The notes: generated by a model from the sequence alone, not told the origin. A stretch of 64,000 bases of DNA from Acidimicrobiia bacterium (GCA_036555105.1 DATBMA010000062.1:7063-71062), one strand, 5' to 3'; shown: positions 8,509-35,648, numbered from the stretch's first letter. Numbers and translations are program-made.

Positions 8509-11500
8509 CCTTCGAACCGACGCCCGAGCAGCAGGCGGTCATCGACGCCCCCACCGGTCCGCTGCGGGTGTCGGCCGGCGCGGGAACCGGCAAGACCACC
8601 ACCATCGCCCTGCGGGTGGCATCAATGGTGACCAATGGCGGAGTCGCCCCCGAGGAGGTCCTCGGGGTCACGTTCACCAACAAGGCGGCCGGCGAGCTGT
8701 CCGACCGGATCCGATTCCATCTCGCCTCCCGTGTCGAGGCCGGACAGGAGGTCGAGGTCCGCACCTATCACGGCTTCGCCGCCCAGATCGTCCGGGAGTT
8801 CGGCGTGCTGATCGGGATCGAACGGGGCACCAAGGTCATCAGCCCCACCTACAGCCGCCAGCTGCTGCTGGAAGTGATGCGGCGCCATCGCCTGCCCGGC
8901 GTCGACCAGACCTACTTCCAGGTCGTGGGGAGGATGCTCCGACTGTCGTCCAGCCTCGGCGACCACCTCCTGACCGCCAGAGAGGTGGCGGCCCCTGAGG
9001 GAGCCGGCGGGGCCTGGGTGGAGCGGGCGGGGCTGTTGGAAGGCCTTCGCCACTACGAGTTGGAGAAGAGGCGGCTGGGGGTGGCCGACTACGGCGATCT
9101 GATCACCGGCGCCCACCGGGTCTTGATCGAGCGGCCGGAGACGGCCGCCCGCATCTCCGCCCGGTACCGGGTCGTCCTGCTCGACGAGTATCAGGACACC
9201 AACCCGGCCCAGCGAAAGATGCTCCAGGCGCTCTTTCCATCCGGGCACTCGGTGACCGCGGTCGGGGACACGGACCAGACCATCTATGAATGGAGGGGAG
9301 CCTCCCTCGACAACTTCAGGAGCTTCCCCCTTCACTTTCCGTCGGCCTCAGGCCATCCGGCGCCGACCCTTCCCCTCACCTTCAACCGGCGGTCCGGTAC
9401 CAGGATCATCGAAGTGGCGAACGCCATCCGCGACCAGATCGGGTCGGACTCGGCCCCGCTGCAGCCCAAGCCCGACGCCCCCGAAGGCGGGGTGGAGACC
9501 GCTTGGTGGCGAACCTCGGTCGACGAGGCCGAATGGATAGCCACCCGGCTGGAGGAGTTGCACGAATCGATGCGCTGGCGCGACGCGGCGGTCCTGTTCC
9601 GCAAGAACAAGGACATCCCGTTGATCCTGGAGACTCTTGGCCGCCACGAGATCCCGGTCGAGGTCGCCAATCTGGGTGGGCTGCTCTCGGTTCCCGAGGT
9701 GACCGACCTCCACTGCTGGCTGCGGATCCTGGCGGATCCCGAGGACGGTCCCGCCTTGGCCAGGGTGATGCTTGGGTCCGGCTACCGGCTGGGCCTGGCC
9801 GACCTGGCCGCACTGGCCAGGTGGGTTCGAAGCCTGCGGCCCAGGCGACCCGAGCGTGATGACGAGGCGGGGCCCTCGCCGATCGAAGCCGTCGACCGAC
9901 TCGAAGACGTGGCCGGCCTCCGACCGGAGGCGGCACCGGTCCTCCAGTCGTTCCGCGCCACCTACAGAGCGCTGTTGGTGGCCGCCCAGGGATCATCCCT
10001 GGTGGAGTTGTGCCGGACGGTGCTCGAGGCCACCCGCGCCTGGTCCCACGTCGATGCCTTGCCCAGCGCATCGAGGCTTAGTGCCCGGCTCAACCTCTAC
10101 AGATTCCTCGATCTGGCAGAGGACTGGTCGCCGTTGGAGGGGCGCCCCTCGTTGGATGCATTCCTGCTCTTCCTCGCCGACTCGGCGGACGCCGAGGCCG
10201 ACGAGCTCGATCCGGCGCGGCTGTCTGGCGCCGATGCAGTCACCCTGGTGACGGTCCACCGAGCCAAGGGCTTGGAGTGGGAAGCCGTCTTCCTGCCCGC
10301 CGTCCACAAGGACAACTTCCCTTCCCGGCAGATCAACTCGGACAATCCGCGCAAGAACGCCCAGTCCCTGCCCTATGAGCTGCGCCTCGACGCCGGCGAC
10401 CTGCCTGGCCCGGAGATGACCGACGCCAAGTTCGAGGCCGCGGTCCGCGAGCGTCACCTCCAGCAGGAGTGGCGAGTGGCGTACGTCGCCGCCACCAGGG
10501 CCAAGAGCCTCCTGGCGGTGAGCGGCGCCTTTTGGGGGGGCAGCCCCGAGCCGAACACCAACCCGCGGGAGCCCAGCCCGCTGTTCGAGCTCGTCGACAG
10601 CCATCCGATGTCAAGGCAAGTGAACTTCGAACCCGATCCGGGCGAGCAGCCCGAGCTGCTCGGACTCGAGCCGACGGCCCCCTCCCCTGATCCCACCTTC
10701 GCCAGCGGTTGGGAGGAGGCCATGCGACGCGCCATCGCCGACCCCGCCTACCCGGCCCAGCTGGCTGACGAGCTGAAGGTGTCCGACGCGTTCGAGCGCA
10801 GATTGGCCGACGAGGAGGCGACCCTGTTCGACCTACCCCAACTCCCGGGCGAGGAGGCCTCCGCTACTCCCATCGTCTCGGTGACCGGGCTGGTCACCTA
10901 TGCATCCTGTCCCCTCCGGTACAGGTGGTCGGAGGTCGACCGACTGCCCCAGCGACGCTCACCGGCGGCCAGGCGCGGGTCCGAGGTGCACCGGCGCATC
11001 GAGCTCCACAACCTGGGAGTGGTCCCGCTCGACGATCTCGCCTTCGACACATATGACGCCACTTCCGACGTCACCACCGCCGCAGGACAGGACGAACGAC
11101 CTCACGACCCCATGGTCTCTTTCCTCGGCTCGCGCTTCTCGACCGACAGGCCCCTGCTGACAGAGGCCCCGTTCGAGTTGCGACTCAATTCGGGCACCAA
11201 GGTGCGCGGGCGGATCGATGCCGTGTACGAGAGCTCGGAGGGAATCTGGGAGGTGGTCGACTTCAAGACCGGCCCGCCGAGCGCCGACCCGGCCACCCGC
11301 GTGCAGCTGCAGGCATACGCGGTGGCGGTCGAGGACGTCCCGTTTCGCAGCAATCCGCCCGATGATGTGACCGTCACCTTCGCCCACCTAGGCAAGGAGG
11401 CAATCGAGCTGAGCGAGCACGTCGATGAAGCCTGGCTGCAGGAGGCGCGAGAACATCTGGATCAGCTGACGGCCGGGATCGAGGCGCAGGCCTACCCGGC

Positions 11501-11573
11501 CACCCCGGGTCCCGGCTGCGCGAGCTGTGACTTCTTCGGCTTCTGCGCCGCCGGCCAGGCCTATCTCAGCTGA
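8505..11573 (+). CDS. adnB: AdnB-like subunit of an ATP-dependent helicase-nuclease (UvrD-like helicase fused to a RecB nuclease with Fe-S cysteines).
   Basis: The start was set at ATG 8505 (reading MTFEPTPEQQAVIDAP), in frame with the track ORF 8115-11573, whose upstream extension is Arg/Gly-rich. It has the Walker A motif GAGTGKTTT and DEYQDT, the C-terminal nuclease motif EVVDFKTG and the cysteines PGCASCDFFGFC. Confidence 0.75.
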   Translation: MTFEPTPEQQAVIDAPTGPLRVSAGAGTGKTTTIALRVASMVTNGGVAPEEVLGVTFTNKAAGELSDRIRFHLASRVEAGQEVEVRTYHGFAAQIVREFGVLIGIERGTKVISPTYSRQLLLEVMRRHRLPGVDQTYFQVVGRMLRLSSSLGDHLLTAREVAAPEGAGGAWVERAGLLEGLRHYELEKRRLGVADYGDLITGAHRVLIERPETAARISARYRVVLLDEYQDTNPAQRKMLQALFPSGHSVTAVGDTDQTIYEWRGASLDNFRSFPLHFPSASGHPAPTLPLTFNRRSGTRIIEVANAIRDQIGSDSAPLQPKPDAPEGGVETAWWRTSVDEAEWIATRLEELHESMRWRDAAVLFRKNKDIPLILETLGRHEIPVEVANLGGLLSVPEVTDLHCWLRILADPEDGPALARVMLGSGYRLGLADLAALARWVRSLRPRRPERDDEAGPSPIEAVDRLEDVAGLRPEAAPVLQSFRATYRALLVAAQGSSLVELCRTVLEATRAWSHVDALPSASRLSARLNLYRFLDLAEDWSPLEGRPSLDAFLLFLADSADAEADELDPARLSGADAVTLVTVHRAKGLEWEAVFLPAVHKDNFPSRQINSDNPRKNAQSLPYELRLDAGDLPGPEMTDAKFEAAVRERHLQQEWRVAYVAATRAKSLLAVSGAFWGGSPEPNTNPREPSPLFELVDSHPMSRQVNFEPDPGEQPELLGLEPTAPSPDPTFASGWEEAMRRAIADPAYPAQLADELKVSDAFERRLADEEATLFDLPQLPGEEASATPIVSVTGLVTYASCPLRYRWSEVDRLPQRRSPAARRGSEVHRRIELHNLGVVPLDDLAFDTYDATSDVTTAAGQDERPHDPMVSFLGSRFSTDRPLLTEAPFELRLNSGTKVRGRIDAVYESSEGIWEVVDFKTGPPSADPATRVQLQAYAVAVEDVPFRSNPPDDVTVTFAHLGKEAIELSEHVDEAWLQEAREHLDQLTAGIEAQAYPATPGPGCASCDFFGFCAAGQAYLS

Positions 11574-19410: not shown

Positions 19411-21504
19411 GTGCCGATAAAGGAATCGGTCACGAGGAGGGCTGCCGGCCTGGCTGCACCCGAGCTCCATACGCCCGAGCGGTGGCGCTCCCGAAGGGGA
19501 GCGGCCGCGCTTTTGCGCGCCTGTGTCTTCCTGCTCCCGCTGGGTGCCGGCTACCTCGCCGGAAGGATCGTCTCGGCTTCCCTGCCTGAGCCGAGCTCGG
19601 TCGCCGAGACAGTGGGATGGTGGGTTCTGGTCCTCGCCTCCGCCGCCGTGGCCGGCCATTTCGCCGACCGGCTGGGACGCCGACTCCTCCCGCTCACGGT
19701 CCTGCTGCGGATGACCATGCTCTTCCCCGACCAGGCCCCTTCCCGCCTGCGCATCGCCCAGCAGGCCGGCAACGTCACCGAGCTCAAGCGCCGTATCCAC
19801 GAGTCCCTCGAACAGGGCAACAACGACATGGCGGCTACCTCCGAGCTGATCCTGTCACTGGCCGGTGCGCTCAGCGCTCATGACCGCAAGACCCGCGGAC
19901 ACTCGGAGCGGACCCGCGCATACGCCGACCTCCTGGCCGAGCAGATGCGAATCCCCGACGATGGGCGGGACCGGCTGCGGTGGGCAGCCCTGCTCCACGA
20001 CGTCGGCAAGCTGGAGATACCGGGCGAGATCCTCAACAAGAACGGCCCGCTATCGGAGGATGAGTGGGAGCTGGTCAGCAAGCACCCGATCCATGGAATG
20101 CGGCTGATCGCTCCCCTGGCCGAATGGCTCGGCCCCTGGGCGCAGACCATCGAGCATCACCACGAGCGCTGGGATGGCTCCGGCTATCCATACGGGCTGG
20201 TCGGAATCGACATCGCGCTGGGGGCGCGCATCGTCTCTGTGGCCGACGCATACGACGTGATCACCACCGGCCGCTCGTATCAGAGCAAGGTCGACCACGC
20301 TTCGGCCCGGGCCGAGATCGCGAAGCACTCTGGAACCCAATTCGACCCCACTGTGGTGCGGGCGCTGATGAACCTGAACCTGACCAAGATGAGATGGGCC
20401 ACCGGGCCGTTGGCGGCCCTGGCCGAGTTTCCTTTGCTACGGCCCCTGCAGTCGCTCGGTCGCGATGTCTCCACGCTGCTGTCGGCAGCGGCGGTTGTGG
20501 GAGCGGCCGGGCTGGCGGGCGTGGCCGCGGCTCCGATCCTGCCGCCCCCGCCGGTGGTCGCCGCCGAAGCTCCCTCGACCTCCACCACCCAGACGACATC
20601 GGCCGCGGTCGGCACCACCATCCCCGGGCCCGGCACCACCCTCGACTCGACCACCACCTCCCAGGCCGAGGGGCCGACGACGACCACCTTCGTCGAGCCG
20701 ACCGTCACCCAGCCGGGATCCACCACCCAGCCTCCGACCACTACCACCACTGAGCCCACCACGACCAGCCAGCCGACCACCACCTCCACCACCCAGCCTT
20801 CAACCACGACCACCACCCAGCCGACCACCACCTCGACCACCCAGCCATCCACCACCACCACCACCCAGCCTCCCACCACGACCACCACCCAGCCCGGCAA
20901 CCACCCGCCCAATGCCGTGAACGACACCGCCACCACTCAGACCGGGCGAAGGGTCGACATCCCGGTGCTGGCCAACGACAGCGACCCGGACGGGGACCCG
21001 ATCACGATCAGGCCGCCGCTGGGCAGCCCTCAGCACGGGACCGTATCCCTACGCAATAACGGAACCGTCGTCCGCTACCGACCTGCCCAGGGTTTCGCCG
21101 GCAGCGACAGCTTCGGTTACACGGTTTGCGATTCCCACAACGCCTGTTCCACGACGACCGTGGCGGTAACGGTCACGCCCAACGGACAGCCTCCGAATGC
21201 CCAACCCGATTCAGCATCGGTATCCCCGGGAGAATCGGTCTGGATACAGGTCCTGCGCAACGACTCCGACCCGAACGGGGACCTGAACAACAACAGCCTC
21301 ACGATCACGGTGCCACCCCCTGCCGGGCAGGGCAATGCGGTGGTCAGCAACAGTTGGAGTCGCTGTGGCCGAGGCAATGGAGTGCGGCCCTGCATCCGCT
21401 ACACGGCGCCGCCGCTTTTCACCGGGACCGTGGTGTTCACATATCGAGTGTGTGACTTCGGTGGCAACTGTTCGACGGCAACGGTGACTGTCACCGTCTC
21501 CTGA
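19411..21504 (+). CDS. HD-GYP phosphodiesterase with two N-terminal TM helices, a third TM helix, and a C-terminal Thr/Pro-rich linker plus two cadherin-like/VCBS-like repeat domains.
   Basis: It has the HD-GYP signatures HDVGKLEIP and HHERWDGSGYPYGL. After residue about 330 there is a TM segment (LLSAAAVVGAAGLAGVAAAPILPPP), then a TTTQP repeat region, then VNDTATTQTGRRVDIPVLANDSDPDGDPITI and a second LRNDSDPNGD-containing repeat. Confidence 0.75.
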   Translation: MPIKESVTRRAAGLAAPELHTPERWRSRRGAAALLRACVFLLPLGAGYLAGRIVSASLPEPSSVAETVGWWVLVLASAAVAGHFADRLGRRLLPLTVLLRMTMLFPDQAPSRLRIAQQAGNVTELKRRIHESLEQGNNDMAATSELILSLAGALSAHDRKTRGHSERTRAYADLLAEQMRIPDDGRDRLRWAALLHDVGKLEIPGEILNKNGPLSEDEWELVSKHPIHGMRLIAPLAEWLGPWAQTIEHHHERWDGSGYPYGLVGIDIALGARIVSVADAYDVITTGRSYQSKVDHASARAEIAKHSGTQFDPTVVRALMNLNLTKMRWATGPLAALAEFPLLRPLQSLGRDVSTLLSAAAVVGAAGLAGVAAAPILPPPPVVAAEAPSTSTTQTTSAAVGTTIPGPGTTLDSTTTSQAEGPTTTTFVEPTVTQPGSTTQPPTTTTTEPTTTSQPTTTSTTQPSTTTTTQPTTTSTTQPSTTTTTQPPTTTTTQPGNHPPNAVNDTATTQTGRRVDIPVLANDSDPDGDPITIRPPLGSPQHGTVSLRNNGTVVRYRPAQGFAGSDSFGYTVCDSHNACSTTTVAVTVTPNGQPPNAQPDSASVSPGESVWIQVLRNDSDPNGDLNNNSLTITVPPPAGQGNAVVSNSWSRCGRGNGVRPCIRYTAPPLFTGTVVFTYRVCDFGGNCSTATVTVTVS

Positions 21505-21519
21505 CCCTACGATCGGTCG

Positions 21520-22311
21520 GTGCGCGCCGGCTACGACCGACTCCCGTTCGACCAGGTGAAGGATGATGCCCGCGACTGGGTCTCATTCGAGGACCCCGAC
21601 TTCGAGCGCACGTGGATCTTCGACGCCACTTTTCTCACCTCCAACTGGAAGTGCATCTACGGAGCCGGCTGCCTAGGCATCCTCCCTTACGCAGCTCCCG
21701 AAAAGGCATTGGGATGCTGCCACCTCGGCGCCTACCTGACGGACGGCAAGGACGCACGCCGGGTTGAGAAGGCGGCCGCCAGGCTCACCCCCGAGCAGTG
21801 GCAGCACATCCCGGCACCAGACAAGAGCCCGCTCCGCAATCGTCCTGGTGGGGACCGCAGCACCCGGGTGGTGGACGGCGCCTGCATCTTCCTCAACCGG
21901 CCCGGCTTTGCAGGTGGCACGGGCTGTGCCCTTCACATCGGGGCCGTGGCCGCCGGGGAGGAACCGCACACCTGGAAGCCAACCACCTGCTGGCAGCTGC
22001 CCTTGCGCCTCGAAGACACGGTCGACGACAACGGGTGGATGACCTCGATCGTGCGCGAGTGGCGGAGCCGTGACTTCGGGCCGGGCGGCGAGGAGTTCAA
22101 CTGGTGGTGCACGGAGTCACCACTCGCCTTCGTGGGGGCGACTCCGGTCTATGTCGGCTTGCGAGCGGAGCTGGTGGAGATGATTGGTCCGCGTGTGTAC
22201 GAGATGCTGGCTGCCAAGCTGCGCCGCCCGCAGCTGCTACCCCATCCGATGATGCGCAACGGTCACACCAGTCCGCCGGCCAAGGCCCCCAATCCCAGAA
22301 CCACCGCGTAG
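21520..22311 (+). CDS. Conserved hypothetical cysteine-rich protein.
   Basis: It has a GTG start and 263 aa. It carries about 9 Cys in clustered pairs (CIYGAGC, GCCH, ACIFLNRPGFAGGTGC, TCW, WWC). I could not assign a family from memory. Confidence 0.4.
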   Translation: MRAGYDRLPFDQVKDDARDWVSFEDPDFERTWIFDATFLTSNWKCIYGAGCLGILPYAAPEKALGCCHLGAYLTDGKDARRVEKAAARLTPEQWQHIPAPDKSPLRNRPGGDRSTRVVDGACIFLNRPGFAGGTGCALHIGAVAAGEEPHTWKPTTCWQLPLRLEDTVDDNGWMTSIVREWRSRDFGPGGEEFNWWCTESPLAFVGATPVYVGLRAELVEMIGPRVYEMLAAKLRRPQLLPHPMMRNGHTSPPAKAPNPRTTA

Positions 22312-24197
22312 GCGAGCAGTCCGCCGACCACCACCCCCCACCGCAGCCAGGCGGGTAGCTTGGAGCGGCCGAAGACGAAATAGATGATCGGCCCCAGGAG
22401 GGGGACGAGCAGGATCACCGCCAGCCAGCCGACCACCCGCCAACCACTGCGACCGGACTGGGCCAGATCGATCAGGGCGATGGCGAGCCATGCTGCGTAG
22501 AGAGCCACCGGCAAGAAGTAGCCGAACACCTCGAAGAACGTCGAGGTGGCCGAGCCGAGCACCATCCCGAACACAGTAACCACGGGCGCCTGGTCGGCTA
22601 CCAGCCCGGCAGGCATGGGCGGGACCGAGACCGCCGCCAGGTCGACCACGGCCCCGGCAAAGACCGACACCGCCGGATGCACAGCGGCAAACTCGATATC
22701 CGGCATCGGCTCCTGCAGCCCGGGAGTCGGAGCACTCCCCACCGGGTTGTCGGGTGCCCGTCCGAGGTTGGTGTCTGCAAAGCGACCCGCCAACTCCATC
22801 AAGGCCGCCAGCTCGTACTTGACCGGCAGCCGCAGCCCGGTGCAGCCGTGCACAAGTTGCAGCCCTGGCGGGAGGCTGGTCGCAGCCTGGTTGTCACTGA
22901 AGCAGTTGCCGTCCCCGGCCGGCCCTGCCATGGCCAGATCCGCCCGGCCAGAGCCTTCGACCAGATTCCCCTCGACCCGGTTGTCCGAGCTGGTCCAGAA
23001 GTTCTTGTCGAGGATCGGGGTGACGATGATCCCGTTGCCCTGGTGGTTCACCACGCGGTTGCGGATCACCTGTGACCCGTTGCTGCCGGCCAGGACGATG
23101 CCGTTGCCGAACCCGGCCCACTCCCACGCCTTCATCGGCGCTTCCAGGTTGTCGTTGTCGTGCACGAGATTGCCCGCGATCACCACCTCCTGGGATGGAG
23201 GCAGTAGCTCGGAGTCGAGGGTGTTGGGAACGATGCCGGCCCCATTGAACCGGAAGACCGACTCCACGATGTAGATGTCACCCGACGAGTTGGTCCCCGA
23301 GTAGCCGAGCCCGTTCCACTCCGAGATCACATCTCGAATCATCGCCCGGCACGGGTTGCACTGGCCGACATAGAAGCCAGAGTCGGGCGAGCCCGAGGCA
23401 TAGGAGTGCTCGAACAATCCCTCCGACGCGTCGAAGGCATAGATGCCGTAGTCGCCGTTGTCGATGGCCGTCACGTAGGACGCCCGGTAGCCGACCACCC
23501 GGCTCCAGTAGATGCCGTTCAGGTCGGCGTTGCGGACCGTCAGATTCTCGACCGCCACCCCGTCGGCGAACACGTCGATTGCGTTCTCATGACCGTCAGC
23601 GTCGATTACCACCTCATTGCGGTCCGTGCCTCTTATCACCAGTCCCGGGGTGCCGACTTCCACCCCTTCCCGGTATACCCCTGGCGCGATCAGGATCAGA
23701 TCACCTGGCTCGGCGGCGTCGACCGCCGCCTGAATGGTGGGATACTCGTCGGGGACGTTGCGGGTCTCGCCGGACCAGCCTGCGGGAGCCTGGCTATGGG
23801 CGGCGCCCTGGGCGGCAGCCGAGGCATCGGGGTCCCCCACGATCACCTTGCCGGCCATCCCGCTGCCGTAGGCGGTGCCGTGGAACGTGCAGAAGAACTC
23901 GTACTGGCCCGGCTGGTCAAAAGTGACGGCGGCTGCGTCTCCGTCCAGTTGATTCAGGCTCCCGAACGAGTCCTCGGTGCTCCATGAGCCGTCTGAGGCG
24001 ACCGCATTGTGAGGGTTGCGGCCCGCCCCGACAAATGTGACGGTGCCCCCCACCGGGACATGCACCTCGGCGGGGCCGAAGCTGTTGTCGAGCATCTCGA
24101 CCACCGCATCACCGGTGGCCTGGCTCTCGGCGCAGGCCCCCAAAGCCAATGCCGTCACCGGCAGCAGCAAGAGCCACCACCGGCCGTGCCGGGTCAC
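22263..24197 (-). CDS. Predicted lipoprotein with a type-1 copper (cupredoxin) domain, a NosD-like right-handed beta-helix domain and a C-terminal membrane-embedded PLDc_N-like segment.
   Basis: The start was set at GTG 24197, which overlaps the coxG stop as GTGA and is in frame with the track ORF. It has a signal/lipobox-like RWWLLLLPVTALALGAC, a cupredoxin ligand pattern CTFHGTAYGSGM, parallel beta-helix repeats (NLTVRNADLNGIYW..., VISEWNGLGYSG..., NLVHDNDN) and a C-terminal LAVILLVPLLGPIIYFVFGRS (PLDc_N-like). Confidence 0.65.
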   Translation of the reverse strand: MTRHGRWWLLLLPVTALALGACAESQATGDAVVEMLDNSFGPAEVHVPVGGTVTFVGAGRNPHNAVASDGSWSTEDSFGSLNQLDGDAAAVTFDQPGQYEFFCTFHGTAYGSGMAGKVIVGDPDASAAAQGAAHSQAPAGWSGETRNVPDEYPTIQAAVDAAEPGDLILIAPGVYREGVEVGTPGLVIRGTDRNEVVIDADGHENAIDVFADGVAVENLTVRNADLNGIYWSRVVGYRASYVTAIDNGDYGIYAFDASEGLFEHSYASGSPDSGFYVGQCNPCRAMIRDVISEWNGLGYSGTNSSGDIYIVESVFRFNGAGIVPNTLDSELLPPSQEVVIAGNLVHDNDNLEAPMKAWEWAGFGNGIVLAGSNGSQVIRNRVVNHQGNGIIVTPILDKNFWTSSDNRVEGNLVEGSGRADLAMAGPAGDGNCFSDNQAATSLPPGLQLVHGCTGLRLPVKYELAALMELAGRFADTNLGRAPDNPVGSAPTPGLQEPMPDIEFAAVHPAVSVFAGAVVDLAAVSVPPMPAGLVADQAPVVTVFGMVLGSATSTFFEVFGYFLPVALYAAWLAIALIDLAQSGRSGWRVVGWLAVILLVPLLGPIIYFVFGRSKLPAWLRWGVVVGGLLAYAVVLGLGALAGGLV

Positions 24198-24748
24198 TTG
24201 TGGCGGCGGAACAGGTTCTTGAACCAGGCTGCCAGGCTGGCGAAGAACAGCGAGATGCCCTTGACCTCGCCCGCTTTGATGGCCGCGGCCTCCTCGGCGG
24301 TGCCCGCCTCGAGCTTTCCTTCCAGGCACTGGGCGAACTCGCCTATGAGACGCGACGACATCTCGTTGATCAGGCCGGTGCGACCGAACTGGGCAGCGGC
24401 ACCGCTCAAGGTGACATCGGCCTCGATCTTGACATCGGTTCCTCCCTCGGCCGGGGCGATTGAATAGCCCACCTTCACTTGACCGCGGCTCCCTCCTTTG
24501 CGGTCGACGCCGGTGCCGTCGATCACACAGGTCCGGGTGCTCGAGTCGGGGTTGATCAACGCCTCACCCTCGAAGACCGCATGGAGGGGCCCGAGCTTGA
24601 CCGAGACCTTGCCAATGCAAGTGCCGTCCTCAGCCACCGAGATGAGCTCGGCACCGGGCATGCAGGCGGCGACAGCCGGCACGTCCTGGAAGAAGTCCCA
24701 CACGACGTCGGGCGTGCGCGCAACCTGGAATTGATGCGTCATCTTCAT
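24194..24748 (-). CDS. coxG: SRPBCC-fold protein of the CoxG family (carbon monoxide dehydrogenase subunit G-like).
   Basis: It begins MKMTHQFQVARTPDVVWDFFQDVPAVAACMPGAELI and is 184 aa long. Confidence 0.75.
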   Translation of the reverse strand: MKMTHQFQVARTPDVVWDFFQDVPAVAACMPGAELISVAEDGTCIGKVSVKLGPLHAVFEGEALINPDSSTRTCVIDGTGVDRKGGSRGQVKVGYSIAPAEGGTDVKIEADVTLSGAAAQFGRTGLINEMSSRLIGEFAQCLEGKLEAGTAEEAAAIKAGEVKGISLFFASLAAWFKNLFRRHK

Positions 24749-24766
24749 GGCACGGGACGGTAGCCG

Positions 24767-25804
24767 TCAGGCCGAATTGCGACGCCCGTTGAGAGAGCCT
24801 CCGTCTCGTCCGCGCCGACTGGCGAGGATCTCAGCCATGATCGACCACGCGATCTCCACCGGCCCCTCGGCTCCCATGTCGAGACCGGCCGGGCCCCGCA
24901 GGTTGGCCATGTCTTGGGACCCAACCTCAACGCCCTCGGCCGCCAGATCCTCGAGCATCCTTTGAGTTCGAGCCGATGGCCCCAGGCAGCCGATGTAGCC
25001 GACGCCGGTGCCGAGGACCGATCGGAGGTAGTCGAGGTCGCGCAGATAGTTGTGAGACATGATCACCACCGAGGTGGATGGGCCAGTTGGGACGTGCTTG
25101 GCCAGGTCGATTGGCTGGCAATTGACCAGGGTGGTCGCCTCCGGGAACCGCTCGCGGTTGAGGAACCCTGTGCGGTCGTCGACCAAGATGACTTCGAACC
25201 CGAGCTCCCACCCGAACCTGACGAGCGGCACCGCATCGTGCCCGGCACCGCACACCACCAGCAGAGGCGGGCCTGCCATGACCTCCACCAGCGCGTGCCC
25301 CATCTTCGTCTCCGCCCTGGCATTGCGCCCTGCCGTCAGGGCTTGCTCGACAGCTTCCCCCTGAGATCGATCACCGGATCCGACCGCATAGTGGGCTCCC
25401 AACTCGGCTCCGTCGAGCGGGTGGATGATGGCAGCGGCCCTGCCCCCTTTGACGATCTCGACAAGCTTCCTCGCCCCTTCTGCCGGCTCGACCAGCAGCT
25501 CGGTGGCGCCGTTGCAGCCGATCCCCCATCCCCACACCGCCTCGTCGTCGGCGGTGAGGTCGAACTCGACCAACTGCGGGGAGCCGGACTCGATGACCTT
25601 CATCGCCACTTCCTGTAGGTCTCGATCCAGGCACCCACCGGAGACGGTCCCCACCGAAGCACCATCAGCTGCGACCAGCTGGCGGGCGCCCAAGCCTCTG
25701 TAGGTGGAGCCGCGCACCCCGACCACGGTCGCCAGCGCGAATTCGATGCCGCGCGCCGACCACTCCTCGATCGAGGTGAATATGCGCTCACTGTCACCGG
25801 CCAC
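24767..25804 (-). CDS. xdhC: XdhC/CoxI-family molybdoenzyme maturation factor.
   Basis: It has the XdhC_CoxI N-terminus (GSTYRGLGARQ...GTVSGGCLD) and a Rossmann-like C-terminal domain (VVCGAGHDAV). Confidence 0.8.
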   Translation of the reverse strand: MAGDSERIFTSIEEWSARGIEFALATVVGVRGSTYRGLGARQLVAADGASVGTVSGGCLDRDLQEVAMKVIESGSPQLVEFDLTADDEAVWGWGIGCNGATELLVEPAEGARKLVEIVKGGRAAAIIHPLDGAELGAHYAVGSGDRSQGEAVEQALTAGRNARAETKMGHALVEVMAGPPLLVVCGAGHDAVPLVRFGWELGFEVILVDDRTGFLNRERFPEATTLVNCQPIDLAKHVPTGPSTSVVIMSHNYLRDLDYLRSVLGTGVGYIGCLGPSARTQRMLEDLAAEGVEVGSQDMANLRGPAGLDMGAEGPVEIAWSIMAEILASRRGRDGGSLNGRRNSA

Positions 25805-25837
25805 GACGATCAGGTTACCGACGGGGCGGGAATCGGC

Positions 25838-26320
25838 TCACTGATGTTCGGTGTCGCCGCCGAGCAAATCCAGGGCATGGCCGACCACAGGAAGGACCGC
25901 CTGCAGCCCTGACCTGGCTCCGGCCGGGCTCCCCGGCAGGTTGATGATCAGCGTGCTGCCACGCCCTCCCGCCCGCGGCCGGGAAAGGGCGGCCATGGGG
26001 GTGGATTCGATCCCCCTGGCCAGCATCAGGTGGACCAACCCCGGGGCCTCCCGCTCGAGGATCTCGGCCGTCGCCTCGGGGGTCACATCCCGCGGGCCGA
26101 AGCCGGTGCCCCCGGTCGTGAGCAGCAGATCGCAGGCGTCGGCCAGATCCGCCAGCGCGCTTGCAATGGCGGCTCGATCGTCGGGAACCACTCCCCTCGC
26201 CACCACCTCGAAACCTGCCGCAGTGAGGTCTTCCTGTAGAGCGTGCCCCGAGTCGTCCTGCCTGGTCCCGGCGGCAACCCCATCCGAGACCGTGAGGACC
26301 GCCGCCCGGCGCCGGGTCAC
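25838..26320 (-). CDS. mogA: Molybdenum cofactor biosynthesis protein of the MogA/MoaB family.
   Basis: The start was set at GTG 26320, which overlaps the upstream stop as GTGA. It has the MogA-like core LTVSDG...LLLTTGGTGFGPRDVTPEA...INLPGSP. The remainder of the track ORF 25838-26839 is an unsupported Arg/Gly-rich extension. Confidence 0.75.
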   Translation of the reverse strand: MTRRRAAVLTVSDGVAAGTRQDDSGHALQEDLTAAGFEVVARGVVPDDRAAIASALADLADACDLLLTTGGTGFGPRDVTPEATAEILEREAPGLVHLMLARGIESTPMAALSRPRAGGRGSTLIINLPGSPAGARSGLQAVLPVVGHALDLLGGDTEHQ

Positions 26321-27168
26321 TGCGCGAAGAAGCCGTCTGGATTCGGTGGGAGCGGGATGCCCCTGGAGAGGAAGAACCGAAAGACAACCAGCGTGACCAC
26401 GAACGTGCCCGCCAAACCCCAGGAGAAATTCTGCTCCACCGGGTACTGAGGAGCCTGGACATGTTTGGTGCCTGGGCTGGCCAACAGAGTGATCAAGGTG
26501 AACGCCGCTCCCAAGGGGACGGCGGCGATCAACCCGGTACCGGGATCGGGGAGGAAGAAGGGGACAGCCAACAGTGCTCCCAGGACCCCCGCCAGCACCG
26601 CCACCCTCGCCACGAAGCCCAACCGCTTGCGGGGCCCGGCAATATCGTCGCGGGAGGGGGCGTAGGCGAGGAAGGCAGGGGCCGCCGCCAGAGACACGAG
26701 CAGGATCCCGATCGCCCCGGCGGCACCGATCACCACGTCGAACCCACCCGGGAGATCGAGGGTGGCGAGGGCCTTCGTGAGGTCGGCGTCGGAGTCGAAC
26801 GGGACCATGGCCATTTGCACGAAGCCCTGACGGAAGCAATGGAGGATCAGCCAGAGGACCGCAAGCCGGGAGGCATCATGGGCACGGCTGCCCGGGTAGA
26901 TCGCCAGGAAGATGATCCCCGCGACGATCGAAGCGGCTGCACCAGCGGCCAGGGCCAGATCCGATCCCCCGGTCGTGAACTCGACGCGGTTGTTGTAGAG
27001 CACAGGGCCCCGGTCCAACAGCGCTCCCACCACCCACCGGCCGAGTGAGTCGATGAAGAATGCGAACACGACGCCGAGGGCGGCGGCGATCGTGGAGTTG
27101 ATGGTGAGGATGGTGGTTGGCGCCAACCGGCGCTTCTCCACCACCTGCTCGGCGGTCATCGATCCCAA
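26317..27168 (-). CDS. Multi-pass integral membrane protein, hypothetical.
   Basis: It has 283 aa and about 7 hydrophobic helices. It is the first gene of the mogA-xdhC-coxG-cupredoxin operon. Confidence 0.55.
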   Translation of the reverse strand: MGSMTAEQVVEKRRLAPTTILTINSTIAAALGVVFAFFIDSLGRWVVGALLDRGPVLYNNRVEFTTGGSDLALAAGAAASIVAGIIFLAIYPGSRAHDASRLAVLWLILHCFRQGFVQMAMVPFDSDADLTKALATLDLPGGFDVVIGAAGAIGILLVSLAAAPAFLAYAPSRDDIAGPRKRLGFVARVAVLAGVLGALLAVPFFLPDPGTGLIAAVPLGAAFTLITLLASPGTKHVQAPQYPVEQNFSWGLAGTFVVTLVVFRFFLSRGIPLPPNPDGFFAQ

Positions 27169-27232
27169 TGCTAGAGGGGGTCTCCCCTCCGGCCTGTCCT
27201 CTCCGGATCTCCGACGTGGATAGCGTTGTCAG

Positions 27233-27646
27233 ATGACTTCGGAAGACGGCGTCGAGCCGATAGGGCCGACCTCCGGATCGGCGGTGGAGGACTCCATCCT
27301 CCGGGCGATCGCCCAAGGCGATTTCGACCAGCTTCCGGGAGCCGGGAAGCCGATTCCCGGGCGGGGGGTGGCAGACCCGCCCGGTTGGTGGGCGCAACGC
27401 CTCCTCGATGACGAGCGGCGACGACGCACGAGGGCACGGGAGGACGCACTACTGGAGGCAGAGTTGAGCGCCATCTGGATGCTCGAAATCGAGGCGGAAG
27501 CCAGGGCAGCCGCCGAGGACCTGGCTCGAAGGGTCACCTCGATCAACGCCGCACGGCTGGCGGAAGATGCATTTCCCACGCCCGAGCCCGATCAAGTTAT
27601 GGCTGAGTGGAGGGCGATGTCGGCGGCGCGCCGGGCCCGCCCCTAG
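27233..27646 (+). CDS. DUF1992 (DnaJ-C28-like) domain protein.
   Basis: It has the DUF1992 core IAQGDFDQLPGAGKPIPGRG and is 137 aa long. Confidence 0.5.
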   Translation: MTSEDGVEPIGPTSGSAVEDSILRAIAQGDFDQLPGAGKPIPGRGVADPPGWWAQRLLDDERRRRTRAREDALLEAELSAIWMLEIEAEARAAAEDLARRVTSINAARLAEDAFPTPEPDQVMAEWRAMSAARRARP

Positions 27647-30336
27647 CTGTGCTTGCGCCGCATCAGCCGCTGCAGGGTCTCCGACTCGGACAGGGTGGGG
27701 GGCGGCTGTCCCCCGGCCTCGGCCTCCTGCTTCTTCTCGTCGACCTGCTTGCGCCCGCGCACCTTGGCCGGGGTGAAGCCCGACTTCCATGCGGAGCTGT
27801 CGCCTGCGGTGAAGACCAGCCGTCGCAAGGCGACGTCGGCCAGGAAGAGGGCGAGGGCCAGGCCCACCAGCCATGGCCAGACACCGACCTCGGCGCTGCC
27901 CCTGACCGGCGCCGGATCGAAGACCGAGTCGGCTGCTGGGTCGATCCGCCCGCCGGTGGGGCCGGTCAGGTCGGTGGCCAGAGTCGGGTCGGGCTCGCGA
28001 AAGGCGAACTCCTCCTGGTAGCTGGAAACCGCCCCCGAGCTGGAGCCGGTGCGGGAGCCGTCCTCGCCGTCCAGCAGCACAGACACCCAGTAGGCGCCTG
28101 GCCCGGAGGCGGGCGCGTCGGCCACGAAGGTATCTGAGCCGAGGCGGCTCATCGGAACCAACACCACCTCGCCGCCGGGCAGGCGGATGCGGGCGGTGGC
28201 GGTGTCGTCGATGCCCGCCCCCTCGGCGGTGTAGCTGACCTTCACGCGCCCGTCCTCCACCGCGACCTCCGGCGGGTTGTCCCTGCCGGCCGGAAGGACG
28301 TCGCGCACGACCTTGCCCCAGAATTCCACGTACCCGTCCCAGTCGACCCAGAGGGATGACCAGCGGGCGGTTGCATCCGAGGTCCACACCGACGCCCGGC
28401 CGAGCCCGCGTTGCCAAGAGGCGAAGAGAGGATCTCCCGGCCCGATCTCGAGCGCGACCGAGGCGGTGCCCTTCGCCTTGGTGAGCACGTAACCGAGTAG
28501 CGCCGGCGAGCTCGTGAGGCCGGCCGTCACCTGCGACGGCGCCGCCAGGGCCGGGAAGAAGCTGCCCTCCTCGGCGAGGTTGCGGGCGACTGTCAGAGTC
28601 TCTTCCACGAAGATGTCGGGGATGGATTCGAGGTCGTCCCCCGGGTAGTAGCGGCCTCCGCCCAGCTCGGCCATGCGTTGCAGGGCGCTGCCAGGGCCCT
28701 CCCCGGTACCGAGAACCGAGAGGGTCACGCCGGCGTCGGCGATCTCGCGAGCGATTGGAAGGAGGTTGGCGTCGCTCGGGTCCCAGCCGTCGGTGAAAAG
28801 CACGATGTGCCGCAGCGACTCCGGCACGTCGCGCAGGCTGTCGAGCGCCACCTCCAGCGCCGCCGAAATCTCGGTGTCGCCGTTGGGGGTGATGGTGCCA
28901 AGTGCATCTCGCACCTCCGCTGTCCCCGGACGCTGTGCCAGCGGCAGCACCCAGCGGCTGCCCGAGGTGAAGGCCAGGACCCCCACCCGATCGGTGTCGG
29001 ACAACGCCTGGATCGCCAGCTCCGCCCCCGCCTTGGCGATGTCGGTCTTGACGACCCCGCCCTCCTGGGCATTGCCACTGTTGCAATGGCAGGCCGCCAT
29101 CGAGCCGGATGAGTCGATGACCAGTACCTCGGCCACCGGCTGGCGCCGCACCAGGTCGTCGGGATTGGAGGAGACGGGCAGGACCGACTCCAGCGCCGTG
29201 AGGTGATAATCACCGAGCCCGAAGGATTGGTCGCCGCCGATCACCACCAGGCCCCGCCCCAGGTCCTCGACGAACGAGGCGAGGGCCGCGGCGGAGGCAT
29301 CTGAAGGACGGTCCACGTTCACCAGGACCACGGCGTCGTAAGTCAGCAGCTGCTCCGGCCCGGGAATGGTGCCAACCAACTCGACATTGATCCCTCCGGC
29401 CTCGAGTGCCCTGGTGACCTCGTCCGCCTCGCCTTCAACTCCCTCGACCACCGCCACTTTGGCCGGGCCAAGGACCCGAGTGATCCCCTCGGCTTCGTCG
29501 TTCTCGGGCCGCTCGTCGAAGGGTGCCGTCAGCCTGGCGTCCACCCGCAGGAACCCGCTTTCGCCTGCCGGCACCTCCACTTCCACCTCGTTGCGGCCGG
29601 CTTCGAGCTCGATGTCCATCTCCTGGCGATCGGCGCCCGCCGTCACCACCAGATGGGCGGTCCCAGCGACGTTGGAGCGGATGACCACCGTGGCGGTGAC
29701 CATCTCACCCTGTCTGACCGATGAGGGAAGGCGGACCGACTCGACCAACCCATCTGCCGCCCGGCCCGGGTCCAGCGAGACCACGTCTACGGCGATGCCG
29801 GCCTCCTCCAGCTGGGTGACCACTTCCCTGGGATCGGCCCCGGTCGCCACCAGGTCGGTCAGCACGATGATCCGGCGGGAGCCCTCACTCGGCATCAAGG
29901 CCGCCGCCCCCCGCAGGGCGCCGGCCAGGTCAGAGGCCGACCCGTCCACTTCGGTGAGGATCGGGGCGAACAGTCGCCCAGGGGTGAAGGCTGACTCGAG
30001 GCGCAGCTCGGACCCGAACACCGCGATCGCGGACCGATCAGCAGGGCGACCCTGATCGAGGGCGGCCGCCAGGTATTGCTCCTGCAGCGCCCGCGCCTCC
30101 GATGAGATCGAGGCGGATCTGTCGAGGAGGAAGAGGACGTGCCGGTCTTCGACGGCGCGGTTGAGGATCGGAGCGGCCGCGGCCAGGACCAACAGCACCA
30201 GCGCCACGGTGCGGGCCACCACCGCCCAACGATGCTGGGAGCGCGGCACGGTGCGCCCCCCGCGTCTAGCAACGAAGTGCGCGATGAGCAACACCGGCAC
30301 CAGGGCGAGCAACCACCAGGGGTTCTCGAAGCTCAC
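27643..30336 (-). CDS. Large membrane-anchored von Willebrand factor A (VWA) domain protein (BatB-like) with a C-terminal TM helix.
   Basis: The start was set at GTG 30336, which overlaps the upstream stop as GTGA and gives a BatA_N-like start VSFENPWWLLALVPVLLIAHFVARRGG. It has the VWA motifs LFLLDRSASIS and VLVIDSSGSM, and a C-terminal TM segment WPWLVGLALALFLADVAL. Confidence 0.75.
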   Translation of the reverse strand: MSFENPWWLLALVPVLLIAHFVARRGGRTVPRSQHRWAVVARTVALVLLVLAAAAPILNRAVEDRHVLFLLDRSASISSEARALQEQYLAAALDQGRPADRSAIAVFGSELRLESAFTPGRLFAPILTEVDGSASDLAGALRGAAALMPSEGSRRIIVLTDLVATGADPREVVTQLEEAGIAVDVVSLDPGRAADGLVESVRLPSSVRQGEMVTATVVIRSNVAGTAHLVVTAGADRQEMDIELEAGRNEVEVEVPAGESGFLRVDARLTAPFDERPENDEAEGITRVLGPAKVAVVEGVEGEADEVTRALEAGGINVELVGTIPGPEQLLTYDAVVLVNVDRPSDASAAALASFVEDLGRGLVVIGGDQSFGLGDYHLTALESVLPVSSNPDDLVRRQPVAEVLVIDSSGSMAACHCNSGNAQEGGVVKTDIAKAGAELAIQALSDTDRVGVLAFTSGSRWVLPLAQRPGTAEVRDALGTITPNGDTEISAALEVALDSLRDVPESLRHIVLFTDGWDPSDANLLPIAREIADAGVTLSVLGTGEGPGSALQRMAELGGGRYYPGDDLESIPDIFVEETLTVARNLAEEGSFFPALAAPSQVTAGLTSSPALLGYVLTKAKGTASVALEIGPGDPLFASWQRGLGRASVWTSDATARWSSLWVDWDGYVEFWGKVVRDVLPAGRDNPPEVAVEDGRVKVSYTAEGAGIDDTATARIRLPGGEVVLVPMSRLGSDTFVADAPASGPGAYWVSVLLDGEDGSRTGSSSGAVSSYQEEFAFREPDPTLATDLTGPTGGRIDPAADSVFDPAPVRGSAEVGVWPWLVGLALALFLADVALRRLVFTAGDSSAWKSGFTPAKVRGRKQVDEKKQEAEAGGQPPPTLSESETLQRLMRRKHS

Positions 30337-32135
30337 GCCATTGCCTCCTTGCGCCGCAAGCCAGGTCGCTGATGGCCCACCCACCATTCGATCGCCATAA
30401 GGAGGAGAACCAGCCCGATGAACCATGGCGCCCACTCCCTTATCAACTGAGCCGCTTCCTGAGGGGCCCCGGGAGCATCGGCTGTGGCGATCTGACGCGA
30501 CGCTCCCGCCGACTCGTCAGAGACGAATGTCCTCACCGCCATAGGGCCGGGGCTGCTGGTGCCGTCCGCCTTCAGGTAGTCGACCCTGTAGAGACCGGGC
30601 AGGCCGGTGTCGGCAAAGGAAGCCGCTTCTGGCGGGAGGTCGCGGGTGGAGGCATCCGGGAGGGTGACCCTGGGAACGGTCCCGGCCGGGGCAGAGAGGG
30701 CGATGGGGGTGCCTGCCGTCTCGGAGGAAACCGTTCCAGCACCCGCCCCTGCCAGCCAATCGAGCAGCCTGGCTCCCAGGATCGGGAACCCGATCTGCAC
30801 CGGCAGGTTCGACTTGGAGATGTCGAACGTGAAGTATGCGACCCGCTGCCCTTCCACCTCGCCGAGGAGCACCAGCGGGACGTCCCCGGCTCTCACCAGA
30901 GGCAGCCAGCCTGGTGCATCCACCACTTGGGCTTCGGCCACCGCCACCTGTGAGAGATCGACGCCATCGAGGATGGGCTCCCCAGGCCGTTGCCAGGTGA
31001 CCACGGTGTTCCGTACCAGCTCCGTCGGTGTGATGCCGGCTGGCGGGGTCTCGGTGGCGATCACCCAGGCCGGCCTGTCGATGGTGGCACTCGCCCCGCC
31101 ATCGACCACCAGCAGCTCGGGCTCGCCTTCGCCACCGCCGGTGAAGCCAGGTGCGGCCTCGATCAGAGCAGCGAGGAATGGCGACCCCGAGCTGAGGCCT
31201 ACCTTCCTCTCCGGGCCTCCCCCCACCACCAGCACGGACTCGTCGTCGAGGCTCAGTGAGTCCTCCGTGTCGAGCAGCTGAACGGTGACCACGTCGCCGG
31301 GGCCGGCATCGACCGGGATCGTCTGCCTGGCCTCACCCAGCCCGGGCAACTCGAGGGTGACCACCCCGGCGGGCAGGCCGTTGACCGCCACCTCGGCCGC
31401 CACCGACTTGGCATCACCGCCGTAGTTCGAGAGCTGCAGGAACGCCCGCAGGCTTCCCTCGGTCGATGGCTCGATCGACCACGCACTCACTCCCACGTTG
31501 GGGCCGAAGTCGTCGATTCGGACCTGGCGGGCACCGGCGACCGGCTCCTCAGGCAGGGGGTCGGTGCCACCGTCGGAGAAGATCAGCAGGCTGGTCGGGC
31601 GATCGGGAGTGGCCAGGCCTCGACCCAGCCTGATGGCGGCAGAGAGGTCGCCGTTCCCGCCGGTCGCCTGAAGCGAAGTGATGGCGGCAATGACCAGGTC
31701 TGGATCCCGGGACAGGCCGGCGAGGACCCTGGGCTGCGCCCCGGCCTCCACCACCGACACCAGGTTGGCTTCAGAGATGTCGGCGACCATGGTCAGCGCC
31801 CGCTCCTTGGCCCGTTCCAGCCGCCCCGCCATCGCCATCGAGCCGGATACATCGAACACCATGACGGTGTGCGGGCCCAGCAGGGTGTCCTGCGAATAGA
31901 AGGGCCGGGCCAGGGTGAAGACCAGTGCAGCCAGCACCAAGAGTTGGAGCAGCAACAGAGGGGTGAGCCGCAGCTTCTGCCATGGGACCGCCGACGAAAC
32001 CGGAGCACCGACCTGCTCCCACAACAGAGTGCTCGGCACCTCCACCCGGCGCCGGCGGGAACGCAACATATAGAGGACAACCAGGGGGATGGCCAGGGAG
32101 GCCAGGCCCAAGGCGATCGGGGCCAGCAGGTTCAT
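30333..32135 (-). CDS. BatA-like VWA domain membrane protein.
   Basis: It has an N-terminal TM pair MNLLAPIALGLASLAIPLVVLYMLRSRRRR and the VWA motif VMVFDVSGSMAM. Its start overlaps the DUF58 stop as ATGA at 32132-32135. Confidence 0.75.
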   Translation of the reverse strand: MNLLAPIALGLASLAIPLVVLYMLRSRRRRVEVPSTLLWEQVGAPVSSAVPWQKLRLTPLLLLQLLVLAALVFTLARPFYSQDTLLGPHTVMVFDVSGSMAMAGRLERAKERALTMVADISEANLVSVVEAGAQPRVLAGLSRDPDLVIAAITSLQATGGNGDLSAAIRLGRGLATPDRPTSLLIFSDGGTDPLPEEPVAGARQVRIDDFGPNVGVSAWSIEPSTEGSLRAFLQLSNYGGDAKSVAAEVAVNGLPAGVVTLELPGLGEARQTIPVDAGPGDVVTVQLLDTEDSLSLDDESVLVVGGGPERKVGLSSGSPFLAALIEAAPGFTGGGEGEPELLVVDGGASATIDRPAWVIATETPPAGITPTELVRNTVVTWQRPGEPILDGVDLSQVAVAEAQVVDAPGWLPLVRAGDVPLVLLGEVEGQRVAYFTFDISKSNLPVQIGFPILGARLLDWLAGAGAGTVSSETAGTPIALSAPAGTVPRVTLPDASTRDLPPEAASFADTGLPGLYRVDYLKADGTSSPGPMAVRTFVSDESAGASRQIATADAPGAPQEAAQLIREWAPWFIGLVLLLMAIEWWVGHQRPGLRRKEAMA

Positions 32136-33014
32136 GCCACCGCCTCGGCCCCGGCCAGCGCCGCCAGCACCTGGTCGGCGGCTTCGGGCCCGGCAGGCAC
32201 CAGGACGTAGTCGAGCCCCGCCCGCCTGGCTCTCCCGGCCGCCCCTGCCGCGAAAGCCTCGAGGGCGGCCCGGTACTTGCGCATGGTCTCCTCGGAGGTG
32301 GAGACCGGGACCTCGCGCCCAGACTCCGCATCCGCCAGCCGCAAATCACCTGCCAGGGTCGGCTCCAGCTCCTCTTGACCGAGCACATGCAGCACCACTC
32401 CGCCGGAGGTCACCAGCAGCCCGTCCAGCGCCGACTGCCAGTCGGGCGACATGAGGTCGGAGACCAACACCAGCGAGCCGCGGTTGACGCCCTCTCCCGC
32501 CAGGCGCCTCACCGGCGGGCTCAGCTCCGCCCCCCCGACAGGTTCGATCTCCTCCAACCATCGCTCCAGCGCGGGCCATGACGACAGGTGCCGGCCGGCT
32601 GGGCCGGCAGCCCACGCCCTCCCCTCCGGCCCAGGTATCGAGTAGACCTGCACACGGTCCCCGCCTGCCAGGCCGAGGTACGCAACCATCCCCGCCAGCA
32701 CCCTCGCCGTATCGTGCTTCGAGTAGAAGCCCATCGACCGCGAGCGATCGAGCACGACCCTCACGGGCAGCTCTTCCTCGGCCTCGAAGCGCCGCACCAG
32801 CAGGACCCCGAGCCGTGCCCAGAGGTTATGGTCGATACGCCTGAAGTCGTCACCCGGCACGTATTCGCGGTAGTCGGCGAAGTCGAGGCTCTCGCCCTTG
32901 TGCTGCGAGCCGTGGCGTCCCGCCCACTGCGCTCTGACCCTCCGCCTCGCCACCAGCGAGAGTCGCTCGAGCCTTCCCCTCAGTTCGACCGGAAGCAGCA
33001 TGATGCGGCGCCTC

Positions 33015-35648
<2,634 letters not shown>

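Follow-up and report, generated by a model that had tools for sequence, protein, structure and literature searches.

What brings genes for handling the molybdenum cofactor (Moco) together with the gene for an outward-facing copper protein, in DNA that encodes no molybdenum enzyme? The question is raised by a five-gene operon in a 64,000-nucleotide stretch from an Acidimicrobiia bacterium (GCA_036555105.1, DATBMA010000062.1:7063-71062; ~67% GC), the whole of which is called the window here; proteins from metagenome-assembled Acidimicrobiia genomes match those of the window exactly. In order, the operon encodes a membrane protein (memb283), MogA, XdhC, CoxG, and a 644-aa lipoprotein that we refer to as BIG. 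Our analysis indicates that the five genes are very probably the accessory half of a gene cluster for a form I (Mo-Cu) aerobic carbon monoxide dehydrogenase (CODH). Taken as the best explanation of the locus as a whole, we give this reading a probability of about 0.6.

The operon and the cox clusters of related Acidimicrobiia

The connection to CODH comes from relatives of the operon, which we compared in a sample of 80 species-level loci (74 with downstream DNA and 57 with enough upstream DNA). In locus L010, the large open reading frame (ORF) between MogA and XdhC matches a xanthine-oxidase-family large subunit in Pfam, and reading the ORFs gives the order membrane protein-MogA-CoxM-CoxS-CoxL-XdhC_YHS-XdhC-CoxG-BIG-oxidase. 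The active-site loop of the L010 CoxL is VAYRCSFR; an AYxCSFR loop in CoxL marks form I Mo-Cu CODH. Loci L167 and L168 repeat this ten-gene operon. In all three, coxM-coxS-coxL-XdhC_YHS (~4.7 kb) occupies the position of a 33-nt spacer between MogA and XdhC in the window, and a divergent DJC28 gene flanks the operon upstream, as it does in the window. Downstream, L167 and L168 have the same HD-GYP/Big_9 and AceE genes as the window, while the L010 contig ends earlier. Because the same operon holds coxMSL in relatives and shares its flanks with the window, we read the window operon as a reduced cox accessory operon; the window lineage lacks coxMSL, XdhC_YHS and the oxidase at the operon site.

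Given this gene context in relatives, the link of the operon to a Mo-Cu enzyme is well supported, and the presence of form I coxMSL in the operon of L010, L167 and L168 lends contextual support to the suggestion of a first-pass annotation of the window that such an enzyme is encoded elsewhere. A second lineage, L173 (CoxL 84% identical), has coxL-XdhC_YHS-CoxG-BIG with overlapping junctions and the HD-GYP flank, and no oxidase. The CoxG and BIG genes overlap by 4 nt in the window, L167, L168 and L173. All CoxL loops examined, those of L010, L167 and L169-L172 (L168 and L173 fall outside this set), read AYRCSFR, and the top CoxL homologues across Acidimicrobiia are 82-100% identical and named as aerobic CO dehydrogenase large subunits. 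Separate cox loci consist of coxMSL-XdhC_YHS with no CoxG in L169, L170 and L172, and the L171 cluster includes CoxG. The window CoxG is 62% identical to that of L167 and 59% identical to that of L171, both in cox clusters, and the window XdhC has 55% identity with the second XdhC encoded in the cox operon of L167.

The operon and its upstream surroundings in the window are laid out as follows:

27233-27646 (+): DJC28-like gene, divergent from the operon
27169-27232 (no strand): divergent intergenic region between the DJC28-like gene and the operon, presumed promoter
26317-27168 (-): memb283, first gene of the operon, polytopic membrane protein specific to Acidimicrobiia; stop overlaps the MogA start
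25838-26320 (-): MogA/MoaB-type molybdopterin adenylyltransferase-like protein, 160 aa (PF00994, TIGR00177)
25805-25837 (no strand): MogA-XdhC spacer, 33 nt, in the window sequence
24767-25804 (-): XdhC/CoxI-family Moco insertion chaperone, 345 aa (PF02625 and PF13478)
24749-24766 (no strand): XdhC-CoxG gap, 18 nt, in the window sequence
24194-24748 (-): CoxG, 184 aa (PF06240), with an SRPBCC quinone-shuttle domain connected by a linker to a membrane helix at the C-terminus
22263-24197 (-): BIG, 644-aa lipoprotein encoded by the last gene, with a type-1 cupredoxin, a right-handed beta-helix and three C-terminal transmembrane (TM) helices

The first-pass annotation had described five minus-strand genes chained by GTGA overlaps and short gaps, and we found the five ORFs and both junctions exactly where it had placed them, with gaps of 33 and 18 nt at the other two boundaries; the same gene set appears in independent gene calls on identical metagenome contigs. 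The GTGA at 26320-26317 joins the memb283 stop to the GTG start of MogA, and that at 24197-24194 joins the CoxG stop to the GTG start of BIG. Both overlap junctions carry the same 10-nt string, GTGACCCGGC (24188-24197 and 26311-26320), and MogA and BIG both start V-T-R for this reason. A sigma-70 consensus scan of the intergenic region upstream of the operon gave no match. An Rfam search of 21000-28500 at E<=1 likewise gave none, and hence no Moco riboswitch upstream of the operon. Terminator-like sites were not above chance expectation, in keeping with a single operon, though the consensus scan for promoters and terminators was on the whole uninformative.

The gene order is not peculiar to the window. 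Of the 57 loci with enough upstream DNA, 34 have the membrane protein-MogA-CoxG unit ahead of BIG, so the adjacency is not due to chance and the expectation that the operon would be syntenic in relatives is borne out; XdhC is present in only 12 of the 57. The genes flanking the operon vary among loci while the core order stays intact. The conserved downstream neighbour, seen also in L167, L168 and L173, is a gene at 19411-21504 (+) for an HD-GYP-type (HD_5) protein with a long Thr/Pro-rich linker and Big_9/cadherin-like domains.

The window itself is empty of the enzymes in question. Pfam searches of its ~45 major ORFs across the 64 kb found neither a xanthine-oxidase-family or CODH subunit nor a multicopper oxidase, and tblastn of the window with the CoxM, CoxS, CoxL and oxidase of relatives found nothing, in agreement with the original remark that no Mo enzyme is present. 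Nor does a Mo enzyme immediately flank the operon within the window, though in relatives coxMSL lies inside it. Genes for CoxD (MoxR AAA+), CoxE (VWA_CoxE) and CoxF are not in the window operon, and none of seven Acidimicrobiia cox loci (L167-L173) has a CoxD/E/F-type gene closer than 10 kb. CoxD and CoxE fall in the MoxR and VWA classes. Just upstream of the operon and on the same strand, an operon at 27643-34145 (-) encodes MoxR (AAA_3), DUF58, BatA/VWA and VWA+GATase1_like proteins; we considered it as a CoxD/E analogue and set it aside, given its Bat-type architecture, its lack of a VWA_CoxE match and its co-location in the clade of the window only.

The domains named in the first-pass annotation (MogA, XdhC/CoxI, CoxG, Copper-bind, NosD and PLDc_N) all have Pfam or NCBIfam matches. 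MogA matches MoCF_biosynth (PF00994; 117 bits, 5e-34) and TIGR00177 (126 bits; cut-off 85), and does not reach the MogA equivalog PRK09417 (116 versus 158 bits). XdhC exceeds the Pfam cut-offs for XdhC_CoxI (79 bits, 2e-22) and XdhC_C (121 bits, 5e-35), has PDB matches 3on5 (1e-39) and 2we7 (9e-24), and stays below the NCBIfam equivalog cut-offs (170 versus 350 bits and 76 versus 162 bits). CoxG scores 58 bits for PF06240 (COXG; cut-off 22, 9e-16), its residues 1-156 match the CoxG-family structure 8UDS_D (4.5e-18), and its C-terminus carries GISLFFASLAAWFKNLFRRHK. No metal-binding motif and no structural match were found for memb283. In L032, the memb283 and MogA matches fall within one stop-to-stop ORF (7946-9292), either a fusion or an assembly artefact.

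CoxG had been taken for a Mo-Cu or copper-insertion factor, which is at odds with published work: CoxG plays no part in Mo-Cu cluster maturation (PMC4240915) and is a menaquinone shuttle tethered to the membrane (PMC12202499). In the pathway that we propose, MogA would adenylylate molybdopterin, XdhC would insert Moco, and CoxG would act as the tethered menaquinone shuttle, all three probably serving a CODH or another xanthine-oxidase-family enzyme encoded elsewhere in the genome.

In Acidimicrobiia, the product of the XdhC-family gene directly after form I coxL ends in a YHS (TRASH-like) domain, DPVCGMVV...YFCARSC, that is putatively metal-binding. XdhC_YHS may be what handles copper in the cytoplasm for the Mo-Cu site. 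The XdhC_YHS genes are:

L167, 12370-13257
L169, 12441-13268
L170, 12362-13249
L172, 12528-13271
L173, 2508-3413

Three cox loci also carry a GAF-HisKA_3 sensor kinase and a GerE-type response regulator directly upstream of coxMSL (L170, 6617-8529; L171, 6390-8329; L172, 6448-8420).

BIG, its family and its oxidase partner

BIG is the least familiar product of the operon. With its lipobox, type-1 (T1) copper ligands and TM helices, it is predicted to be an outward-facing copper protein, uncharacterised, as the first-pass annotation had suggested, and two predicted anchors, one lipid and one TM, hold it at the outer face of the membrane. Its parts are:

24132-24197 (-): signal peptide and lipobox (LGAC, Cys22), translated as VTRHGRWWLLLLPVTALALGAC
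23832-24116 (-): cupredoxin domain, residues 28-122, with T1 ligands His63, Cys103, His106 and Met114
23856-23891 (-): T1 ligand loop, translated as CTFHGTAYGSGM
22788-23780 (-): right-handed parallel beta-helix, residues 140-470, with conserved CxPC (CNPC at 23349-23360) and GNCF
22266-22550 (-): C-terminal membrane anchor of three predicted helices, with PLDc_N (PF13396, 2e-7) over residues 572-611

Pfam recognises Copper-bind (5e-11; PF00127, 43.3 bits versus a cut-off of 21.2), Beta_helix (5e-13), NosD (2e-6) and PLDc_N. Cys22 is invariant or nearly so among homologues, and the four T1 ligands, in register with the ligand positions of plastocyanin and amicyanin, are invariant in 55 of them, as are C280 and C283 of the CxPC motif and C432. 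Searching the PDB with a BIG-family profile returned cupredoxins as the sole matches. Amicyanin (3e-10) and plastocyanin align with the domain, and so do the tethered cupredoxins of the nitrite reductase NirK 6hbe (9e-10) and of the two-domain multicopper oxidase Nmar_1354 (9cck; 2e-5). An AlphaFold 2 model of BIG (predicted local distance difference test 88.6; predicted template modelling score 0.81) has C-terminal helices at 550-580, 585-609 and 616-643.

The beta-helix is harder to place. Its best fold matches are alginate epimerases/lyases and pectin-lyase-like enzymes, and its best NCBIfam match is TIGR03805 (84 bits, below the cut-off of 141.5). The first-pass annotation had called it NosD-like, a description that finds little support: the Pfam NosD match (PF05048) is marginal (27.7 bits versus 23.6), the score for the NCBIfam NosD model (TIGR04247) is far below its cut-off (49 versus 300 bits, covering only model positions 1-119 of 377), the PDB profile search with the BIG family found no NosD, and no nosF, nosY (ABC transporter), nosL or nosZ adjoins BIG in the window or in relatives.

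BIG belongs to a family of more than 5000 homologues, of which the top 120 are full length with identical architecture; database names go no further than 'plastocyanin' or 'right-handed parallel beta-helix repeat-containing protein'. The fused form occurs in 45 of the 80 species-level loci, and in 31 the protein is split into separate cupredoxin and beta-helix/TM lipoprotein genes, both of which encode a lipobox; the two genes of L044 (9932-10348 and 10345-11991) share 4 nt. The split genes follow CoxG in 29 of the 31 loci. By this comparison, the window BIG is a fusion of two lipoprotein genes, one for a cupredoxin and the other for a beta-helix/TM protein. The fusion of two otherwise adjacent genes also ties the cupredoxin and the beta-helix/TM part functionally.

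The most widespread neighbour of BIG is not a Moco gene; it is a gene for a two-domain multicopper oxidase, which follows BIG in 51 of the 74 loci with downstream DNA. The oxidase has a Tat signal, four HxH motifs and one HCH motif, and its closest PDB structures are two-domain multicopper oxidases (3gdc, 7.5e-74; 7rab; 9cck). The HxH and HCH motifs imply a trinuclear cluster, so the protein is not NirK, in keeping with its score for the NirK equivalog (84 bits; cut-off 296). The oxidase is not beside BIG in the window clade (including the nearest relative, 85% identical), in L173 or in several other loci. A conserved ~300-aa cytoplasmic protein with no Pfam or NCBIfam match is encoded after the oxidase on the same strand in L063 (13029-13931) and 13 other loci.

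Outside the operon, 11 loci have a BIG-oxidase pair and nothing more (from Nitriliruptoria, Chloroflexota and other groups), and a further 11 have BIG by itself. Where BIG stands alone, the genes that follow it (methyltransferase, glycosyltransferase, patatin, EF-G, LigD and MFS) bear no relation to one another. In two related Chloroflexota metagenome-assembled genomes, L027 (7782-10022, -) and L043, a MoeA-PBP_like fusion is divergent from the adjoining BIG, an association that is weak because only these two genomes have it.

An exhaustive search with the beta-helix alone gave 10,261 representatives at E<=1e-3. Among the top 93, the cupredoxin is present in 24, PLDc_N in 14 and a Pfam NosD match in 63. 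The beta-helix-only relatives are secreted proteins or lipoproteins, and the next gene downstream encodes a di-haem oxidoreductase (DHOR, PF06537) in 15 loci, DUF1996 in 11 and an unknown lipoprotein in 18; in 80 metagenome loci these relatives had no oxidase, CoxG, MogA, XdhC, Moco or cox neighbours. In L153, from a lower-GC lineage, genes for a cupredoxin-like lipoprotein, a beta-helix lipoprotein and DUF1996 (5520-5987, 5980-7260 and 7254-8144) come after a xanthine dehydrogenase (XDH)-like MSL cluster. This XDH-like cluster, found upstream of the beta-helix gene in L151-L153, was rejected as a further Mo-Cu link: it lacks the AYxCSFR loop and has a purine-catabolism-like context, and the adjacency is probably coincidental.

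Possible roles for the outward copper protein

How might BIG contribute to a cox cluster? Where the Tat-exported oxidase is present, the BIG cupredoxin most plausibly exchanges electrons with the T1 site of the oxidase, by analogy with the tethered cupredoxins of Nmar_1354 and the three-domain NirKs. In addition, it is possible, at rather less than even odds, that BIG is an outward copper redox module that conditions or supplies copper for the CuSMoO2 site. Such a module would stand in for CoxD/E/F, which are not seen beside the Acidimicrobiia cox genes examined, and XdhC_YHS would be its cytoplasmic receiver. A broader version is more doubtful, namely that BIG, the oxidase and XdhC_YHS constitute a new class of CODH accessory proteins that would either take the place of CoxD/E/F, capturing copper or conditioning its redox state on the outside of the cell, or carry electrons from CO-derived quinol to O2 by way of copper proteins alone.

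The first-pass annotation had proposed a copper-handling module working with Moco maturation. The gene link to a Mo-Cu enzyme sustains half of this proposal; the copper half fares less well. A His-Cys-His-Met T1 site is an electron-transfer site, not a chaperone site, and T1 sites do not normally release copper. CODH is cytoplasmic, whereas BIG is extracytoplasmic. With the role of CoxG, the type of T1 site, the location of BIG and the oxidase neighbour all unsupportive, copper delivery by BIG is only a possibility.

Several further observations weigh against our reading as a whole. No CODH gene lies within the 64-kb window, and CODH may be absent from the genome, with the operon a decaying remnant. 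The integrated coxMSL operon was seen in only two lineages, one of the 80 species-level loci plus L173. The wider synteny around the operon is conserved in Acidimicrobiia, so the linkage may be due in part to inherited gene order. BIG and the oxidase occur elsewhere without CoxG or MogA, so BIG is not specific to CODH, and the DHOR and DUF1996 partners of the beta-helix-only relatives are not known copper enzymes. Finally, no copper importer was recognised that could supply copper, memb283 having no metal-binding motif. The stronger view, that the Moco link is inherited synteny and nothing else, was given up once coxMSL was found inside the L010 operon.

If BIG does not handle copper for the Mo-Cu site, it could carry electrons away from it: CODH would reduce menaquinone, CoxG would carry the menaquinol, and the BIG cupredoxin would pass electrons to the oxidase and on to O2, giving a complete copper-based CO:O2 route. 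The gene order in L167 and L168 (structural genes, maturation genes, CoxG, BIG, oxidase) follows such a chain, the overlap of CoxG and BIG described above places its middle steps side by side, the T1 ligand set of BIG is typical of electron carriers, the oxidase holds the full set of trinuclear-cluster motifs, and tethered cupredoxins provide precedents (PMC11761707). Nevertheless, we consider this route, the main rival to copper delivery, unlikely. Neither the BIG TM region nor memb283 has a recognisable quinol-oxidising cofactor or domain, and the oxidase is missing beside BIG in the window clade, L173 and several other loci. Quinol oxidation and O2 reduction would share the outer face of the membrane and so conserve no energy, which would poorly fit CO oxidation as a source of energy for survival (PMC12202499).

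Alternatively, BIG and the oxidase could be an independent envelope module acting on a cell-envelope, thiol or polysaccharide substrate, with the MogA and CoxG link reduced to inherited gene order. In favour of such a module are the BIG-oxidase pairs and lone BIG genes of other phyla, without Moco or cox genes, the fold matches to alginate epimerases/lyases and pectin-lyase-like enzymes, the pairing of beta-helix-only relatives with extracytoplasmic redox proteins (DHOR and DUF1996), the CxPC kept across the whole family, and the broad Acidimicrobiia synteny. Against this, CoxG, XdhC, and coxMSL with XdhC_YHS occur in this operon in several combinations, 29 of the 31 split-gene loci are still downstream of CoxG, and the core order is kept while the flanks change between loci, making this explanation quite improbable.

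NosD has been reported as a Cu(I) relay for nitrous oxide reductase, and a comparable assembly role for BIG, in which Cu(I) would pass by way of the beta-helix to the apo form of the exported multicopper oxidase, is hinted at by the Pfam NosD matches (just over the cut-off in BIG, and in 63 of the 93 family representatives) and the adjoining multicopper enzyme gene, yet is very improbable given the failed NCBIfam and PDB comparisons, the absence of nos partners nearby, the retention of BIG where the oxidase is absent, and relatives that pair with haem rather than copper proteins.

We retain the reading of these five genes as the accessory part of a cox cluster of form I. Farther from the operon, the window also encodes an AdnAB-like pair, two successive UvrD-helicase and PD-(D/E)XK nuclease proteins at 5533-11573 (+).

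Comparison with known systems

The beta-helix of BIG invites comparison with several protein families. Mannuronan C5-epimerases/alginate lyases (8ja4; AlgE4, 2pyg) and the pectate lyase Pel9A are only 16-18% identical to BIG, a similarity of fold only, and a polysaccharide-related gene context is not present around the operon in the window. The proteins of TIGR03805, an uncharacterised family, are described as partners of a di-haem cytochrome. This family is the best NCBIfam match of the BIG beta-helix, and the beta-helix-only relatives lie directly upstream of a di-haem oxidoreductase gene; in contrast, BIG scores below the TIGR03805 cut-off, its partners are a cupredoxin and a multicopper oxidase, and its association with cox genes is new. 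NosD of the NosDFY system shares with BIG an extracytoplasmic right-handed beta-helix of the CASH/pectin-lyase-like superfamily and, for most BIG relatives, a gene adjoining that of a multicopper enzyme. Unlike NosD, BIG has no ABC partners, NosL or NosZ, has its own TM anchor and T1 cupredoxin, and fails the NCBIfam NosD cut-off.

The closest parallels to the cupredoxin are Nmar_1354 (MCO4, 9CCK) and the three-domain NirKs (6hbe), in which a two-domain multicopper protein acts together with an additional T1 cupredoxin similar in sequence to that of BIG. There the cupredoxin is fused to the enzyme, whereas here it belongs to a distinct lipoprotein anchored in the membrane, and is either fused to a beta-helix protein or next to one.

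Among cox systems, coxMSLDEFG of Oligotropha carboxidovorans and coxMSL with coxG of Mycobacterium smegmatis share with the window a CoxG made up of SRPBCC, a linker and a C-terminal helix. An XdhC/CoxI-type chaperone is likewise common to form I cox clusters and the window operon, and coxM, coxS and coxL (AYRCSFR) share the operon in relatives and not in the window. As far as we found in the literature, memb283, MogA, XdhC_YHS, BIG and the two-domain oxidase do not feature in described cox clusters, and Acidimicrobiia cox genes differ from those clusters in having no adjoining CoxD/E/F-type genes. The route of copper to the Mo-Cu site of aerobic CODH is poorly understood, and the CoxD/E/F model rests on a single proteobacterium. 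Acidimicrobiia are widespread and have a highly conserved form I CoxL, and the cox loci that we examined have no coxD/E/F nearby. Instead, CoxG is repeatedly linked to an outward blue-copper/beta-helix protein, and often to a two-domain oxidase. For bacteria that oxidise atmospheric CO, BIG is thus a concrete candidate, open to testing, either for providing copper or for serving as a new exit for electrons, and a large unnamed protein family gains a genomic context.

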